64,000 nucleotides of DNA from Escherichia coli (GTDB taxonomy: Bacteria; Pseudomonadota; Gammaproteobacteria; Enterobacterales; Enterobacteriaceae), in the NCBI RefSeq assembly GCF_044324785.1, contig NZ_CP172127.1; one strand, written 5' to 3'. Positions 5,387-42,890 of the stretch are shown piece after piece. The translations under genes were made by a program, and so were the position numbers. The notes below the pieces were generated by a model. That model made no database searches. It saw nothing but the letters and a program-made list of their open reading frames with translations, and had not been told where the DNA came from. Numbering within the stretch: the stretch's first letter is position 1; each line of letters begins with the position of its first letter.

Positions 5387-6652
5387 ATGGCTTCTACTTT
5401 TACCAGCGACACATTGCCTGCCGATCACAAAGCAGCTATCCGTCAGATGAAGCACGCGCTGCGGGCGCAGCTTGGCGACGTCCAGCAGATCTTTAATCAG
5501 CTAAGCGATGACATTGCCACGCGAGTGGCTGAAATCAACGCACTCAAAGCACAGGGCGATGCCGTCTGGCCGGTGCTGTCTTATGCCGATATCAAAGCAG
5601 GTCATGTTACTGCAGAGCAGCGCGAACAAATTAAACGTCGCGGTTGTGCGGTGATAAAAGGCCATTTCCCCCGCGAACAAGCGCTAGGCTGGGATCAGTC
5701 GATGCTGGACTATCTGGACCGCAACCGCTTTGACGAGGTCTACAAAGGCCCCGGCGATAATTTCTTCGGGACACTCAGCGCTTCACGTCCCGAGATTTAC
5801 CCCATCTACTGGTCGCAGGCGCAAATGCAGGCCCGCCAGAGTGAAGAAATGGCGAATGTGCAGTCGTTTCTCAATCGTCTGTGGACATTTGAAAGTGATG
5901 GAAAGCAATGGTTTAACCCGGATGTGAGCGTCATCTACCCTGACCGTATCCGCCGCCGTCCGCCCGGAACGACCTCCAAAGGTCTTGGAGCGCATACCGA
6001 CTCCGGGGCGCTGGAACGCTGGCTGCTTCCAGCGTATCAGCACGTTTTCGCCAACGTCTTTAATGGCAATCTGGCGAAATACGATCCCTGGCATGCGGCA
6101 CATCGTACGGAAGTTGAAGAGTACACGGTGGACAACACCACCAAATGTTCCGTGTTTCGGACATTCCAGGGCTGGACAGCGCTCTCTGATATGCTGCCTG
6201 GTCAGGGGTTGCTGCACGTCGTGCCCATTCCTGAAGCCATGGCGTACGTACTGTTACGTCCGCTGCTTGATGATGTGCCGGAGGATGAACTGTGCGGCGT
6301 AGCGCCCGGAAGAGTGTTGCCGGTATCAGAGCAATGGCATCCACTGTTAATTGAGGCGTTAACCAGCATTCCAAAACTCGAGGCCGGAGACTCCGTCTGG
6401 TGGCACTGCGACGTCATCCATTCCGTTGCCCCCGTTGAAAATCAACAGGGTTGGGGCAACGTGATGTACATTCCTGCGGCACCGATGTGCGAGAAAAATC
6501 TTGCCTACGCGCACAAGGTGAAGGCCGCACTGGAAAAAGGCGCATCGCCGGGCGACTTCCCGCGCGAGGACTATGAAACAAACTGGGAAGGACGCTTTAC
6601 GCTTGCCGACCTCAACATTCACGGTAAGCGAGCGTTGGGAATCGACAGCTGA
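5387..6652 (+). CDS. ybiU: DUF1479-family protein (421 aa)
   Basis: MASTFTSDTLPADHKAAIRQMKHALRAQLGD... recognised as YbiU. Start trimmed by 2 codons. Confidence 0.85.
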   Translation: MASTFTSDTLPADHKAAIRQMKHALRAQLGDVQQIFNQLSDDIATRVAEINALKAQGDAVWPVLSYADIKAGHVTAEQREQIKRRGCAVIKGHFPREQALGWDQSMLDYLDRNRFDEVYKGPGDNFFGTLSASRPEIYPIYWSQAQMQARQSEEMANVQSFLNRLWTFESDGKQWFNPDVSVIYPDRIRRRPPGTTSKGLGAHTDSGALERWLLPAYQHVFANVFNGNLAKYDPWHAAHRTEVEEYTVDNTTKCSVFRTFQGWTALSDMLPGQGLLHVVPIPEAMAYVLLRPLLDDVPEDELCGVAPGRVLPVSEQWHPLLIEALTSIPKLEAGDSVWWHCDVIHSVAPVENQQGWGNVMYIPAAPMCEKNLAYAHKVKAALEKGASPGDFPREDYETNWEGRFTLADLNIHGKRALGIDS

Positions 6653-34689: not shown

Positions 34690-36840
34690 TTAACGCCGCC
34701 GACGGCGTGGGGATTTCGTTTTTTCTTTCTTTTTAACTATACCTTCAGGGACTTCCGGTTGCTCTATCGGAAATACCGGTAATGCATCCAGTAGCCGCTT
34801 GCCATAATTTTTGGTCAGCAAGCGTTTGTCGTAAATCACCACTTCGCCCCAGCAACCGTGGCTTCGAATCAGTCGCCCAACCTGCTGAATCAGGTTAAAC
34901 GAGGCGCTCGGCAGGCTTTGCACCTCAAACGGATAGCGGTTGAGGCTTTTCAGCCATTCTCCTTCGGTGATCACCACCGGGCTGTCGATGGGCGGAAAAG
35001 CGATTTTGTGGATATGCACCTGGCTGAGCAGATCGCCTTTCAAATCAAGCCCTTCGGCAAATGACTGCAAGCCCACCAGCACGCTACGCTCACCGTTGGC
35101 AACGCGTTTGCGGTGCAGTTCAACTAAACGGTAACGCGGCTGATCGCCCTGCACCAGCAACATCAGGCGTAAATCCGTCACATAGTCGAGAAACCGCTGC
35201 ATCGCCCGTCCGCTGGCAAACAGTACCAACATACCGAGATGTTTTTTGCTCTCCACCTGTTTACGGAAAAAGGCCGCCATTTCGGCAATGTGCTGCTCTT
35301 CGTTGTCGATGGAAGGCTCAACGCGCATCCGGGGAATAACAATTTTGCCCTGTTCGCAGTGGTTAAAGGGCGAATCCAGCGCCACAAAGCGGTCGCCCGC
35401 TTTCTCTTTCAGCCCGCTCATCTCCTGCAAACGCGAAAAACTGTTCAGCGAACGCAAGGTTGCGGAAGTGACAATAATGTGCGGAATACTGCGCCACAGC
35501 AGCCTTTCCAGCTGATCGCTGACACGAATACCCACGCAGTGAAACCAGAGATGCAGCTGCCCTTCGCGCTCTTCCCGCGTCGCCCATTTGGTCACCGGCG
35601 CACCGGAAGATTGCGCCAGAGACGCCAGCCGCCAGAGTTTGCTTTGCGCCTCGAACATCCCCAGCGCGCGGTTCATCTGCAAAATCAACCGATGCAGACG
35701 TACAATGTCATGGCTGCCGGTTTTCTCACTTAAATCGTTAAGAAATAACTCCGCCAGACCACGCAGCATCTCGGTGAGTTTTGCCAGCCGTTGGCAGATC
35801 TCCAGCACTTCATCAGGCAGTTCGCCCATCGCAAAACGGTGCTCTGCCTCCTGCCCGGCAGGCATGTAGAGGTTGAGAATGTTGTTTAACGAGGCGATAA
35901 GCTCATACAACTCTTCACAATGGGCATTCAAACGCTCGGGGATCGCCAGCGGAGGGATGGTCTTCGGGCGAAACTGCTCCATACAGGTAGCGACCAGTTT
36001 CGTGAACAAGTCCAGCTGTAGCCGATACCAGGGCGCGGTGATTTCGGCGCTCATCTCCAGCGCATCCCGTGCCACATCCGGCAGGTGATGACCTTCGTCC
36101 AGCACCAGCAGTAAATTTTTCGGGTCAGGCAATACGGCTTCGCTTTCCATCGCCGCCATCACCAGCGCATGGTTTGCCACTACAACTTCCGCTTCCTGAA
36201 TTTCCCGACGAGCGACAAAAAACGGGCATTCGCGATAGTAATAACAGTTGCGGTTGAGGCAGCTGGCTTTGTCGGTACTCAACCGACGCCAGAGATCATC
36301 ATCAATGGCGATATCCGTATGATCGCGCAGACCATCCCATTTATAAGTGTCGAGATCGCCCTTCAACTTTGCACAACGCTTTTGCTCTTCCTGATTGTTC
36401 GGCGTCAGCTCGTCGTCAAGAAACGCCAGCAGATCCTGTTGCGTGGGTTCAGTACTGGCAAGCGCTGTCAGATTACGCGGGCAAACGTAGCGCCCACGCC
36501 CAAAAGCGGCAGTGAATTTAAGATCGGGAATGATCTTTTTCAGCAATGGTAAATCTTTGCTGTAGATCTGATCCTGCAACGCCACGTTGGCGGTACTCAC
36601 CACCAACGTTTTTTGCTCTTCGCGGGCAATGGCGATGCCGGGAATCAAATAGGAGAGCGTTTTCCCAACGCCGGTGGGTGCTTCAATCGCCAGATGCCGC
36701 CCTTCTTCTCCGGCCAGCGTTTTGGCGACGTCCGCAATCATCTGCCGCTGCGGCGCACGGGGAATAAAGTCGGGGATCTGTTCCTGAAGCGCCTTATACC
36801 AGGCGGCAATTTGCGCTTTAAGCGCGGCGGTTAATGCCAT
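34690..36840 (-). CDS. dinG: ATP-dependent DNA helicase DinG (Fe-S, XPD-like)
   Basis: 716 aa with Walker A APTGVGKT, DEGH box and Cys cluster. Recognised as DinG. Confidence 0.95.
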   Translation of the reverse strand: MALTAALKAQIAAWYKALQEQIPDFIPRAPQRQMIADVAKTLAGEEGRHLAIEAPTGVGKTLSYLIPGIAIAREEQKTLVVSTANVALQDQIYSKDLPLLKKIIPDLKFTAAFGRGRYVCPRNLTALASTEPTQQDLLAFLDDELTPNNQEEQKRCAKLKGDLDTYKWDGLRDHTDIAIDDDLWRRLSTDKASCLNRNCYYYRECPFFVARREIQEAEVVVANHALVMAAMESEAVLPDPKNLLLVLDEGHHLPDVARDALEMSAEITAPWYRLQLDLFTKLVATCMEQFRPKTIPPLAIPERLNAHCEELYELIASLNNILNLYMPAGQEAEHRFAMGELPDEVLEICQRLAKLTEMLRGLAELFLNDLSEKTGSHDIVRLHRLILQMNRALGMFEAQSKLWRLASLAQSSGAPVTKWATREEREGQLHLWFHCVGIRVSDQLERLLWRSIPHIIVTSATLRSLNSFSRLQEMSGLKEKAGDRFVALDSPFNHCEQGKIVIPRMRVEPSIDNEEQHIAEMAAFFRKQVESKKHLGMLVLFASGRAMQRFLDYVTDLRLMLLVQGDQPRYRLVELHRKRVANGERSVLVGLQSFAEGLDLKGDLLSQVHIHKIAFPPIDSPVVITEGEWLKSLNRYPFEVQSLPSASFNLIQQVGRLIRSHGCWGEVVIYDKRLLTKNYGKRLLDALPVFPIEQPEVPEGIVKKKEKTKSPRRRRR

Positions 36841-36854
36841 GAGAAAACCTGAAA

Positions 36855-36874
36855 TACTGTATAAACAGCCAATA
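36855..36874. promoter_or_regulatory. LexA (SOS) box of dinG
   Basis: The minus-strand reading TATTGGCTGTTTATACAGTA is the non-canonical dinG SOS box as I recall it. It begins 15 nt upstream of the dinG ATG. Confidence 0.7.
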
Positions 36875-37010
36875 TTGTGGCATTTTTCGGTTTTCAGGGG
36901 TAATGGTTTTTCTGTTTCTGGAAAGCGGCTCGCAATAACGTTTTCTGGAAGTGAGATTTTCCCGCAGCAGAAGAAACATCATTGCGTAGTAAAAGACAAT
37001 GCACGCAGGC

Positions 37011-37292
37011 TTATTGCGCTGGTGGCCATTGCAGGGCGGTATGCAAAACACGCAGTACCGAGAGCGTATCGCCCTCCACTTGGTAGATCAGCACATAATG
37101 CGGTCTGACAACGGCTTCATGAGTGCCAGCGACTCGTCCGGCCCGATACATCTGCGGGCGTTCACAAACCTGTTCCGCAATGGCTTCAAATTGATTATCA
37201 AGGGCAATTGCCGCTTGCGGATTATCTTTACTGATGTATACCATGATTTGCTCCCTGTCAGACAGGGACATTGGCTTCCATTCCAGACGCAT
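37011..37292 (-). CDS. RelE/ParE-superfamily type II toxin (93 aa)
   Basis: MRLEWKPMSLSDREQIMVYISKDNPQAAIALDNQFEAIAEQVCERPQMYRAGRVAGTHEAVVRPHYVLIYQVEGDTLSVLRVLHTA has the ParE-like length and motif pattern. Its start codon overlaps the stop of the upstream ORF (TAATG). Confidence 0.8.
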   Translation of the reverse strand: MRLEWKPMSLSDREQIMVYISKDNPQAAIALDNQFEAIAEQVCERPQMYRAGRVAGTHEAVVRPHYVLIYQVEGDTLSVLRVLHTALQWPPAQ

Positions 37293-37732
37293 TAATCCCC
37301 CTTCAACAAGGCTTTTTTACGGGCAGCAAATAGACTTTTGGCCTCTTCATGAGAGAGCGCTGGGCGTGGATCGTCAATGGCGGCCTGCACCTGCTCTCGA
37401 AACCAGGCATCATACGCGGCAGCTTCATGAGCTCGTTTTAATGCCTCTGCCCTGTCAGGTCGGGTCGTTTTCTTCTGACCATCCGGGTCGTAATTAGAGG
37501 CGTCGACTTCAAACCGGGCAATACCAACATCTTTCAGGTAGTTGACAACCGTTTCCAGCCGTTTGAACAGGCGGATTTGCCGACTGCGTTGTGCTGCAAG
37601 AGGCCGTTCAGTGTGGCCGTATTTCACGGTCAACGACCAGCCTCCCTGGGTGCCAATAACGTGTGCTGCATCCACTACGCCAGACTCAACCAGTTTATGT
37701 AAGGTTGAGTGATCGATCGTTTCTGGTGCCAT
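37292..37732 (-). CDS. Putative antitoxin, 146 aa. An N-terminal domain of about 90 aa that I cannot place is followed by a C-terminal ParE-antitoxin-like segment.
   Basis: Translationally coupled upstream partner of the toxin. The C-terminal YDAWFREQVQAAIDDPRPALSHEEAKSLFAARKKAL resembles the 'stability determinant'/YacA-type ParE antitoxins I recall. RBS AAGAGG is present. Confidence 0.6.
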   Translation of the reverse strand: MAPETIDHSTLHKLVESGVVDAAHVIGTQGGWSLTVKYGHTERPLAAQRSRQIRLFKRLETVVNYLKDVGIARFEVDASNYDPDGQKKTTRPDRAEALKRAHEAAAYDAWFREQVQAAIDDPRPALSHEEAKSLFAARKKALLKGD

Positions 37733-37768
37733 AATGCGCTAACCTCTTTGTATACAGCATGCAATTTA

Positions 37769-37812
37769 TAATTAAAGATAGCGCAATTAATAATTAAAGA
37801 TAGCGCAATTAA
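37769..37812. repeat. Exact 22-bp tandem direct repeat x2 (TAATTAAAGATAGCGCAATTAA) in the promoter region of the toxin-antitoxin operon
   Basis: 37769..37790 and 37791..37812 are identical. They are bracketed by the inverted 8-mers GCAATTTA (37761..37768) and TAAATTGC (37816..37823). The repeat starts 37 nt upstream of the antitoxin ATG. Confidence 0.9.
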
Positions 37813-37909
37813 TAATAAATTGCATTTTTTGATCGTAAATTGTCCAGGGTGAAATTGCGGTAGAAAGAGACTTGTTGCGAAGATGCCGGGCATCGCCCGG
37901 CATAAAAAG

Positions 37910-39271
37910 TTACTGCGCAGCGGCAGGTTTACGCGGACGGCGGCGACGTTGTTGTTCGCCTGCCGGTTTGGCATCGCCGAGACGACGAGACGGTTTTTCT
38001 GCAGGTTTTGCGCTTGCAGATTTTGCACCACCTTCAGCGCGGCGTGGTTGCTGTTGACCGCGACCACCGCCTTGTCCACGACCGCCGCCACGTTGCTGGC
38101 GACCATTCTGGATCGGTTCGGCTTTGATTGACGGGTCCGGCTCATAGCCCGGAATCGCAATGCGCGGGATCTCTTTTTTCAGCAGTTTTTCGATATCACG
38201 CAGCAGTTTGTGTTCATCCACACACACCAGCGATAACGCTTCACCGGTGGCTGCGGCACGACCGGTACGCCCGATACGGTGGACATAATCTTCCGGTACG
38301 TTTGGCAGTTCATAGTTGACCACGTGCGGCAGCTCTTCAATATCCAGGCCGCGCGCAGCGATGTCAGTTGCCACCAGTACACGAATATCGCCCGATTTAA
38401 AATCGGCCAGCGCACGGGTACGCGCACCTTGCGATTTATTACCGTGGATCGCCGCACTGCGGATGCCATCTTTATTGAGCTGTTCAGCCAGATGGTTAGC
38501 GCCATGTTTGGTACGGGTAAACACCAGCACCTGCTGCCAGTTCCCTTTCCCAATCATGTGCGACAGCAATTCGCGTTTGCGTTTCTTATCAACAAAGTGA
38601 ACATGCTGGGTCACCTGATCAGACGCGGTATTGCGGCGTGCCACTTCGATTTCCAGCGGGTTGTGCAGCAGTTTTTCCGCCAGGTTTTTAATATCGTCAG
38701 AGAAAGTGGCGGAGAACAACAGGTTCTGGCGCTTCGCTGGCAGCTTAGTCAACACACGACGGATATCGTGGATAAAGCCCATATCGAGCATGCGGTCAGC
38801 TTCATCGAGGACGAGAATTTCAACCTGATCCAGCTTCACTGCATTCTGATGTTCCAGGTCCAGCAAACGTCCCGGCGTTGCCACCAGCACATCAACGCCA
38901 CCGCGCAGCTTCATCATCTGCGGGTTGATGCTGACGCCACCAAACACCACCAGCGAACGAATGTTCAGGTATTTGCTGTAATCACGGACGTTTTCGCCAA
39001 TCTGCGCCGCCAGTTCACGGGTCGGGGTAAGAATGAGCGCACGTACCGGACGACGCCCTTTGGCGTGCGGCTGGCGAGTGATCAGGTGTTGCAACAGCGG
39101 CAGCGTAAAGCCCGCTGTTTTGCCGGTACCGGTCTGGGCACTGGCCATCAGGTCGCGGCCCTCCAGCACCGCAGGGATCGCCTGCTGCTGAATAGGGGTG
39201 GGTTCACGGTAACCCTGCTCGGCAACGGCGCGCAGGATATCAGGGCTTAAACCCAAAGAATCGAAAGACAT
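37910..39271 (-). CDS. rhlE: DEAD-box ATP-dependent RNA helicase
   Basis: Q motif, [23 protein letters not shown] and a basic RGG-rich tail. Recognised as RhlE. Confidence 0.95.
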
Positions 39272-39499
39272 AACTACTCCGAACCGCCCCGACCGTTACC
39301 GGTGTAGTTTTCAGGGAGATACTGAAAAGGAAAATGACAAAAACCACAATGTCATGAGGGAGCGGAGTGTAGCAGTTTTTGTGACGCAGCGCATAAATTA
39401 TCCCTGTGACTGGCGTAGCTAAAATTCTTAGCCATACTGGACAACTCCCCTATGGAGTCATAATCTTAATCAATCATTTGATTAAGAATGGACTGTGTG

Positions 39500-42890
<3,391 letters not shown>

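Follow-up and report, generated by a model that had tools for sequence, protein, structure and literature searches.

A two-gene PaaA2/ParE2-type toxin–antitoxin cassette in Escherichia coli whose antitoxin carries a ParC-like N-terminal domain, a candidate operator-binding module

We analysed a stretch of 64,000 nucleotides of Escherichia coli DNA (contig NZ_CP172127.1 of assembly GCF_044324785.1; hereafter the window) with regard to a toxin–antitoxin cassette encoded on its minus strand. The first gene of the cassette (37292..37732, −) encodes an antitoxin of 146 amino acids (aa) with a ParC-like N-terminal and a PaaA2-like C-terminal domain, as supported by the open reading frame (ORF), Pfam, NCBIfam and the RefSeq orthologue. 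The second gene (37011..37292, −) encodes a toxin of 93 aa from the ParE/RelE superfamily (PF05016 ParE_toxin, E = 1e-13). The antitoxin ORF had been reported with the same boundaries, strand and length by an initial annotation of this DNA, and the ORF list agreed with it exactly. The stop codon of the antitoxin gene and the ATG of the toxin gene share one base (TAATG); judged from this overlap, translation of the toxin gene is coupled to that of the antitoxin gene.

The antitoxin ORF starts with ATG and contains no internal Met. Its N-terminus, M-x-x-E-T-I-D-H, is common to the homologues in an alignment of 33 sequences. A ribosome-binding site, AAGAGG (37743..37748, −), was read from the sequence 10 nt 5′ of the ATG, and related loci display GGAG/GAGG motifs in the matching position. 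As the ORF has no internal Met and its N-terminus is conserved, a mispredicted start extension, an objection raised at the outset, could be excluded; together with the ribosome-binding site, these observations uphold the annotated start. By these sequence criteria the 146-aa ORF is a real gene and not a chance ORF. One might still suppose that the long ORF is an annotation artefact and that the true antitoxin is a short PaaA2-like protein preceded by an untranslated leader of about 90 codons. Indeed, free-standing PaaA2 comprises only 63–71 aa, and the orthologue WP_000035214.1, named ‘antitoxin PaaA2 family protein’ by RefSeq, is labelled ‘hypothetical protein’ in many RefSeq genomes. However, residues 1–80 recur at 40–99% identity and with the same start in hundreds of proteins from distant taxa and are modelled with confidence, and the ribosome-binding site precedes the annotated ATG, so that we consider an artefact of this kind extremely improbable.

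The C-terminal part of the antitoxin (residues 104–146; 37295..37423, −) represents a putative toxin-neutralising region of the PaaA2 type with two helices. Pfam PF21217 (PaaA2, ‘Stability determinant’) matched residues 104–130 with 40.9 bits (cut-off 27, E = 2e-10), the PaaA2 entries 3zbe, 5cw7 and 5cze of the PDB aligned to residues 83–139 (E = 2e-4), and the NCBIfam model TA_RelB_antitoxin scored 47.1, just below its cut-off of 50. The structure prediction by AlphaFold2 (AF2), computed from the 33-sequence alignment, showed long helices at residues 94–120 and 128–144. The matches to PF21217 and to the PaaA2 structures were confined to the C-terminal part, in agreement with the earlier claim that only this part resembles known antitoxins. 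The best PDB match of the toxin was ParE2 of the PaaA2–ParE2 complex from E. coli O157 (5cw7_B, E = 2e-7). Since the tail matches PaaA2 and the toxin matches ParE2, both partners point to the PaaA2/ParE2 branch of the ParE systems. By analogy we infer that the tail neutralises the neighbouring ParE toxin; the target of the toxin is likewise presumed.

Residues 1–80 (37493..37732, −) form an α/β domain of the ParC-like type (PF28031), which we propose as the operator-binding domain. AF2 modelled this part with predicted local distance difference test (pLDDT) values of 82–87 and with the helices (H) and strands (E) H8–17, E20–28, E31–38, E41–46, E53–56, H59–69 and E74–77. A conserved basic loop, A46-A-Q-R-S-R-Q-I-R54, connects strand 3 to strand 4. 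The initial annotation had described a separate, well-folded N-terminal module that could not be assigned. The model bears out the first half of this description. The second half no longer holds, because Pfam already delimits the domain as PF28031 (‘ParC-like’) and the NCBIfam profile NF041544 (‘ParC family partition-associated protein’) aligns with it over its full length, with residues 6–83 aligned to profile positions 2–78 of 80 (E = 3.5e-8). PF28031 was listed among the precomputed Pfam domains of virtually every homologue, including one with 99% identity. NF041544 scored 33 bits, where 95 are required for an equivalog. In terms of these profiles, the domain is a member of a broad ParC-like domain family and not a ParC equivalog.

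Residues 81–103 (37424..37492, −), delimited by the alignment and by pLDDT, consist of a variable linker (residues 81–90) and the nearly invariant motif RPDRAEALKRAH (residues 91–102, R91-PDRAEALKRAH-102), at which the long helix 94–120 begins. R91, D93, R94, A97 and H102 are invariant in the 33 sequences. The pLDDT values dropped to 60–68 for residues 81–100, and residues 81–93 or so were poorly modelled. Thus, the charged linker proposed earlier is apt for residues 81–90 or thereabouts, which are variable and poorly modelled, but not for residues 91–102, which are among the most conserved of the protein. ParC-like proteins that have no PaaA2 tail retain this motif as well, which makes it part of a conserved module rather than a spacer.

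Known antitoxin DNA-binding folds are few, namely ribbon-helix-helix (RHH), helix-turn-helix (HTH), AbrB/SpoVT and Phd/YefM. A Foldseek search of the N-domain against the PDB returned no match at E ≤ 1e-3, and a profile search of the PDB sequences no credible one. The ribosomal protein eL38 and the periplasmic N-domain of FtsH share fold topology with it at 8–16% identity and E > 0.03, with no functional link. Matches in the BFVD were restricted to uncharacterised phage proteins of 80–90 aa (E ~5e-4). As far as the model goes, the fold of the N-domain is not seen in studied antitoxins. PfiA of Pf4, considered as a precedent for a new DNA-binding fold in a ParE antitoxin, proved to be unrelated and Phd/YefM-like.

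Searched alone among 1.84 billion representatives, the N-domain matched 372 clusters. Of the best 150 clusters, 67 possessed a PaaA2-like tail and 83 did not; many of the latter were short or fragmentary, and several measured 80–120 aa. A broad alignment of the N-domain was too diverse to serve as a seed for a collection scan. In other loci the N-domain was found alone, with a non-PaaA2 tail beside ParE, or beside an M48 peptidase. Locus L092 encodes a ParC-like antitoxin of 149 aa (P0209, 577–1026) followed by a ParE_toxin gene (1023–1322). The tail of P0209 (...IETIDRSWAEMKRGEGIHQEEVFKRLEKKL...) fell outside the PaaA2-like profile, which shows that the N-domain occurs with neutralising tails of more than one kind. 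In the protein P0130 (171 aa), the ParC-like domain and the RPDR motif are joined directly to a ParE-like C-terminus (...LVISGTSFIVIYKISGDKIKILALLHGSQQWPKN) in a single ORF that probably arose when a deletion or frameshift fused antitoxin and toxin. A stand-alone ParC-like protein of 89 aa, WP_039062313.1, is identical on small Aeromonas plasmids and on an 11-kb E. coli plasmid (L002, 2998–3267; L088, 2498–2767) and has no adjoining toxin gene in the same orientation; stand-alone ParC-like matches were present on 53 Aeromonas plasmids. ParC-like matches were also found on 203 Xanthomonas plasmids. On pXAC64 of Xanthomonas citri, a ParC-like protein of 149 aa with another C-terminus (1805–2254) overlaps the gene for an M48-family, HtpX-like metalloprotease of 201 aa (2251–2856). 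This pair may be comparable to modules of a repressor and a membrane protease, BlaI/BlaR1 being one example.

Sensory or trigger-binding domains are present in some antitoxins, and the N-domain could accordingly act as a sensor or stability-control domain, release of the toxin being governed by a trigger such as a phage protein, a small molecule or a protease adaptor. The small phage proteins from the BFVD that share its fold would fit such a role, and the pairing with a membrane metalloprotease on Xanthomonas plasmids could reflect proteolytic control. However, there was no ligand-binding fold among the structure matches, and a sensor would leave the clade-specific palindromes described below unexplained. 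Neither antitoxin nor toxin matched any PADLOC defence-system model, which also speaks against membership in a defence system. Furthermore, sensing is compatible with DNA binding, as a repressor can itself be the component that is sensed or cleaved. We regard a sensor as improbable, and the suggestion of the initial annotation in this direction found no support.

Upstream of the antitoxin gene, the core operator candidate is a perfect 19-bp palindrome, GCAAT-TAATAATAA-ATTGC (37805..37823; full site GCAATTAATAATAAATTGC), which overlaps the −35 region and the spacer of the antitoxin promoter. To place it in a comparative context, the 130-nt regions preceding the antitoxin genes were aligned by eye and then scored. 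GCAAW-N9-WTTGC was matched at at least nine of ten positions in 49 of 79 loci, compared to 0.027 expected per region, and perfectly in 26 of the 79, compared to 0.002, the expectation being taken from the rest of the same loci. Measured from the ATG, nearly all sites (45 of 48) begin at positions −56 to −80, the majority at −64. The consensus around the site in related loci reads cTTGCAA-tta.taTTa.TTGCg.ATAAT and corresponds to a promoter consensus cTTGCAA-N16/17-(g)ATAAT with the palindrome lying across −35 and spacer: the first half-site falls within the −35 hexamer TTGCAA, and the second occupies the spacer immediately ahead of a good −10. No symmetric partner exists for the TT that completes the hexamer, so that the palindrome can be separated from the promoter element. 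Two other readings of the TTGC motifs were rejected, a sigma-54 promoter because no GG occurs at the −24 spacing, and an extended −10 because the TG is not at −15/−14 relative to the −10.

In the window itself, the consensus scan and homology with related loci delimit a candidate sigma-70 promoter region (37797..37839, −). The promoter predicted by homology comprises −35 ATGCAA (37825–37820), a 17-nt spacer and −10 TATCTT (37802–37797), and the alternative from the consensus scan −35 TTTACG (37839–37834) and −10 TATTAT (37817–37812); both are candidates. A palindromic operator over the cassette's own promoter and an antitoxin-first, overlapping bicistron together give the layout of a type II toxin–antitoxin system.

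Next to the palindrome, a repeat search revealed two 22-bp direct repeat units (37761..37804; two copies at a spacing of 22). Each unit contains a further GCAAT half-site (37761–37765 and 37783–37787, +), so that successive GCAAT half-sites, counting that of the palindrome, are 22 bp apart. The tandem repeat lies inside a 17-nt inverted repeat (37759–37775/37809–37825). In an alignment with E. coli ECE313, E. whittamii Sa2BVA5 and Enterobacteriaceae G50, these strains had a single unit and the 22-bp insertion appeared only in the window, which identifies one unit as a duplication private to the window. The duplication moves the homology-inferred promoter 22 bp farther from the gene and adds one operator half-site. 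The initial annotation had suggested that the extra domain could bind these tandem repeats. The repeats are real and DNA binding has good indirect comparative support, but the repeats are a strain-specific duplication; the conserved element is the palindrome GCAAT-N9-ATTGC.

The palindrome was absent in three Photorhabdus loci (L021, L022 and L023) and present in their close relatives L020 and L026. In the former, unrelated sequence (GTGACCGGGGTGAG...) takes over upstream of about −45, as if an insertion or rearrangement had eliminated the operator and the −35. Upstream of distant ParC-like genes (Aeromonas, E. coli and Serratia plasmids, pXAC64, L092), no consistent 5-N9-5 palindrome was found. 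The evidence for an operator is therefore limited to the ParC-like/PaaA2/ParE family.

Within this family, comparison of the basic loop with the upstream DNA revealed clade-specific repeats. Loci with the canonical loop AAQRSRQ[VI]R (group A, the clade of the window) displayed GCAAW-N9-WTTGC in 53 of 73 cases. With the loop AAQRG-xVRLF (group B) we found TCAYT-N9-AGTGA (12 of 15 loci), and with AAKRG-xxR[IV]F (group C) CCRTW-N9-W..GG (15 of 26 loci), the motifs of groups A, B and C being mutually exclusive between groups. The loop AVRRG was accompanied by CCAAA-N9-TTTGG in two loci, and the loop ..KN[ST] by direct TTTAYARTT repeats 22 bp apart in four of seven. All of these clade-specific repeats occupy the same position, and the palindromic ones share the 5-N9-5 geometry. 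Symmetric changes were also observed at single loci, such as GCGAA/TTCGC with the loop AAHRSRQAR (L035) and GCAGT/ACTGC with the loop AAQRNRQVR (L037). The operator variants track the N-domain subfamilies, and together with the palindrome over the promoter this comparison lends good indirect support to DNA binding.

Taken as a whole, we consider it fairly likely that the cassette is a two-gene operon of the PaaA2/ParE2 type with a fused antitoxin, in which the tail would neutralise the toxin and the N-domain would bind the palindrome and thereby autoregulate the operon. The tail (about residues 91–146) would wrap around the ParE toxin and neutralise it, by homology with the solved PaaA2–ParE2 complex. 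The N-domain (residues 1–80, perhaps together with the RPDRAEALKRAH helix) would supply what free-standing PaaA2 lacks: it would dimerise and bind GCAAT-N9-ATTGC, with the loop A46-AQRSRQIR-54 as the most likely base-reading element. Binding at these half-sites, one on the −35 hexamer and one in the spacer adjacent to the −10, would therefore occlude the promoter and silence the operon. In the window, one more in-phase half-site, contributed by the 22-bp duplication, lies two helical turns downstream, past the promoter; it could make repression stronger or more extended. Conservation of the operator and its co-variation with the antitoxin would be consistent with autorepression by the antitoxin or by the antitoxin–toxin complex.

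The assignment of DNA binding to the N-domain, as that of dimeric binding and of base reading by the loop, was made from sequence comparison and partly by elimination. We know of no DNA-binding activity of ParE toxins or PaaA2-type tails, and since the cassette consists of two genes only, the N-domain is left as the presumptive binder. No other regulator gene is present in the cassette, which is bounded by the rhlE terminator and dinG. A host-encoded protein is an unlikely binder of the conserved site because the cassette is mobile across distant hosts.

Several points weigh against this proposal. The centres of the half-sites are 14 bp apart and not one helical turn, which is unusual for a simple symmetric dimer. 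About one third of the group A loci have no recognisable site, and the motifs of groups B and C were counted in the very loci from which they had been derived. As many of the loci are related by descent, the counts do not represent independent events. Moreover, an AVTRG clade combines GCAA-like half-sites with a different loop, so that a simple loop-to-base code is not established. The AF2 model is that of a monomer with a predicted template modelling score (pTM) of 0.47 and fixes neither the domain arrangement nor a dimer. Finally, ParC of pRA2/Rms149 has no known function, and the pRA2 copy was reported not to be required for plasmid stability (PMC3235114).

The same comparisons bear on the idea that the N-domain is a protein–protein or oligomerisation module, to which its partition-associated name might point, and which scaffolds higher-order antitoxin–toxin assemblies or contacts another cellular partner, with the palindrome being bound by something else or representing a promoter feature. 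The palindrome is kept across distant hosts and changes in step with the antitoxin subclade, which is unexpected for the site of a host factor or for a pure promoter element, and its second half-site lies in the promoter spacer, a region whose sequence is hardly constrained by promoter function. Toxin and tail not being known DNA binders, elimination again leaves the N-domain. A scaffold would, however, agree with the modelled fold, which resembles eL38 and the FtsH N-domain and not the folds of transcription factors, and with the position of Rms149 ParC after ParG, which already provides that partition system with DNA binding. PaaA2–ParE2 is also described as forming large hetero-oligomers (title of Sterckx et al. 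2016, cited in PMC13048266), and the evidence for DNA binding by the N-domain is indirect. We consider a purely scaffolding N-domain unlikely and favour DNA binding. As regards the ParC-like family as a whole, we lean slightly towards the view that PF28031 is a previously unrecognised, sequence-specific DNA-binding fold, eL38-like and with a basic β3–β4 loop reading 5-bp half-sites spaced by N9, that would act as the autorepressor part in a large family of ParE antitoxins.

The best reading of the architecture, by analogy, is a two-gene version of the three-gene system paaR2-paaA2-parE2 in which the repressor function would be fused to the antitoxin. This system from prophage CP-933P of E. coli O157:H7 (5cw7/5cze/5czf, 3zbe) has the same antitoxin-then-toxin order as the window, whose tail belongs to the PaaA2 family (PF21217) and whose toxin is closest to ParE2 among solved structures. 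PaaA2 is described as intrinsically disordered, devoid of a DNA-binding domain and dependent on a separate CI-like regulator, PaaR2 (PMC8630535). In contrast to PaaA2 (63–71 aa), the antitoxin of the window comprises 146 aa with a globular ParC-like domain at its N-terminus. Three genes stand against two, flanked in the window by rhlE and dinG, and the O157:H7 system resides in a prophage immunity region, whereas the window cassette forms a chromosomal islet between dinG and rhlE.

Canonical ParD–ParE systems (RK2 ParD, Vibrio cholerae ParD2) follow the same logic of an N-terminal DNA-binding and dimerisation module and a C-terminal tail that neutralises ParE, encoded as in the window by a bicistronic operon with an operator over the promoter. 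ParD is an RHH protein, whereas the N-domain of the window antitoxin has, according to the model, a different α/β fold, spans about 80 residues and lacks a solved homologue; the window antitoxin is also about twice as long as ParD. No Pfam or NCBIfam match to a ParD or RHH family was found in it at E ≤ 1. ParC of Rms149 (WP_011270177.1; IncP-6/IncG, pRA2) shares 22% identity with the N-domain (BLASTP E = 0.003). It is the third gene of a par locus, downstream of parG, and has no PaaA2 tail; the window gene, unlike it, is chromosomal, paired with a ParE toxin and has no par genes nearby. The ‘ParC’ of the IncP-9 plasmid NAH7 was ruled out as a homologue (BLASTP E = 1.4, no NF041544 match). Two unrelated families are thus both called ‘ParC’ in the Pseudomonas plasmid literature, represented by NAH7 (2016–2468, IncP-9) and Rms149 (6087–6473, IncP-6/IncG), and only the latter is related to the N-domain.

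A search with the full-length antitoxin yielded 900 homologues at E ≤ 1e-3. Nearly all of the best 120 measured 143–161 aa and combined PF21217 with PF28031; hosts included Salmonella, Xenorhabdus, Photorhabdus, Serratia plasmids, Propionivibrio and Luteibacter. The cassette ranges over Enterobacterales, Burkholderiales, Nitrosomonadales, Methylococcales and plasmids. With one genome per species, 315 loci encoded a relative, and among the best 80 of them a ParE-like ORF followed directly in 76, the two ORFs overlapping by −1 or −4 or being separated by a few bases. In a set of 80 metagenome loci, seeded from a divergent family member, all 68 scorable antitoxins had the PaaA2-like tail, and ParE followed directly in 61 of 62 loci. 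Relatives were furthermore detected on 418 plasmids, chiefly from Xanthomonas, Rhizobium and Aeromonas. The two-part architecture is therefore that of a widespread conserved family and not an oddity. The family is already catalogued, with a RefSeq name and two Pfam domains. It thus comes close to the known antitoxin family of this length that the initial annotation had named as the outcome that would count against it. A literature search returned no paper on ‘ParC-like’ antitoxins, two-domain PaaA2 proteins, the function of the N-domain or the operator.

The cassette is flanked by dinG (34690–36840, −) and rhlE (37910–39271, −), the latter being followed by cecR (39488–40174, +). According to blastn against E. 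coli K-12, the whole cassette lies in a variable segment (36940..37881): 36741–36939 is 100% and 37882–38008 96% identical, with no match in between. The segment takes exactly the place that ybiA (N-glycosidase) and the repetitive extragenic palindromic (REP) sequences occupy in K-12 (2600–3305 in L091), from the upstream region of dinG to the terminator hairpin of rhlE (37882–37903). Its junctions are sharp, at 36939/36940 and at the hairpin. In this alignment, the cassette is an alternative allele of the dinG–rhlE intergenic slot. The cassette is carried by 324 of 5,426 complete E. coli genomes, whose copies reach at most 95.1% nucleotide identity with that of the window. At the protein level, the antitoxin shares 99% identity with its counterpart in Escherichia whittamii, and the flanks of the window are about 97% identical to E. 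coli (K-12) and 93% to E. whittamii. A whittamii-like antitoxin between E. coli-like flanks, together with the lower identity of the E. coli cassettes, suggests an exchange of the cassette between lineages of Escherichia.

An autoregulated ParE module is conventional biology, and the protein family is already present in databases. PaaA2/ParE2 is, however, the textbook case of a type II antitoxin that has no DNA-binding domain and relies on an external regulator, and the ParC-like fusion shows an alternative solution, in which the same toxin-binding tail is combined with a ParC-like domain and the two genes travel as a mobile cassette that ranges from E. coli to Betaproteobacteria and occurs on many plasmids. 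If the N-domain does bind the palindrome, it would add a new antitoxin DNA-binding fold to RHH, HTH, AbrB/SpoVT and Phd/YefM and provide the first functional hypothesis for the uncharacterised ParC/ParC-like family. In that case, ParC of IncP-6/IncG plasmids and the M48-paired ParC-like proteins of Xanthomonas plasmids would be DNA-binding regulators as well, and the operator and loop variants (GCAAT, TCACT, CCATT and CCAAA half-sites) would offer a compact specificity-code system in which to follow how repressors diversify in specificity and thereby insulate paralogous toxin–antitoxin modules.

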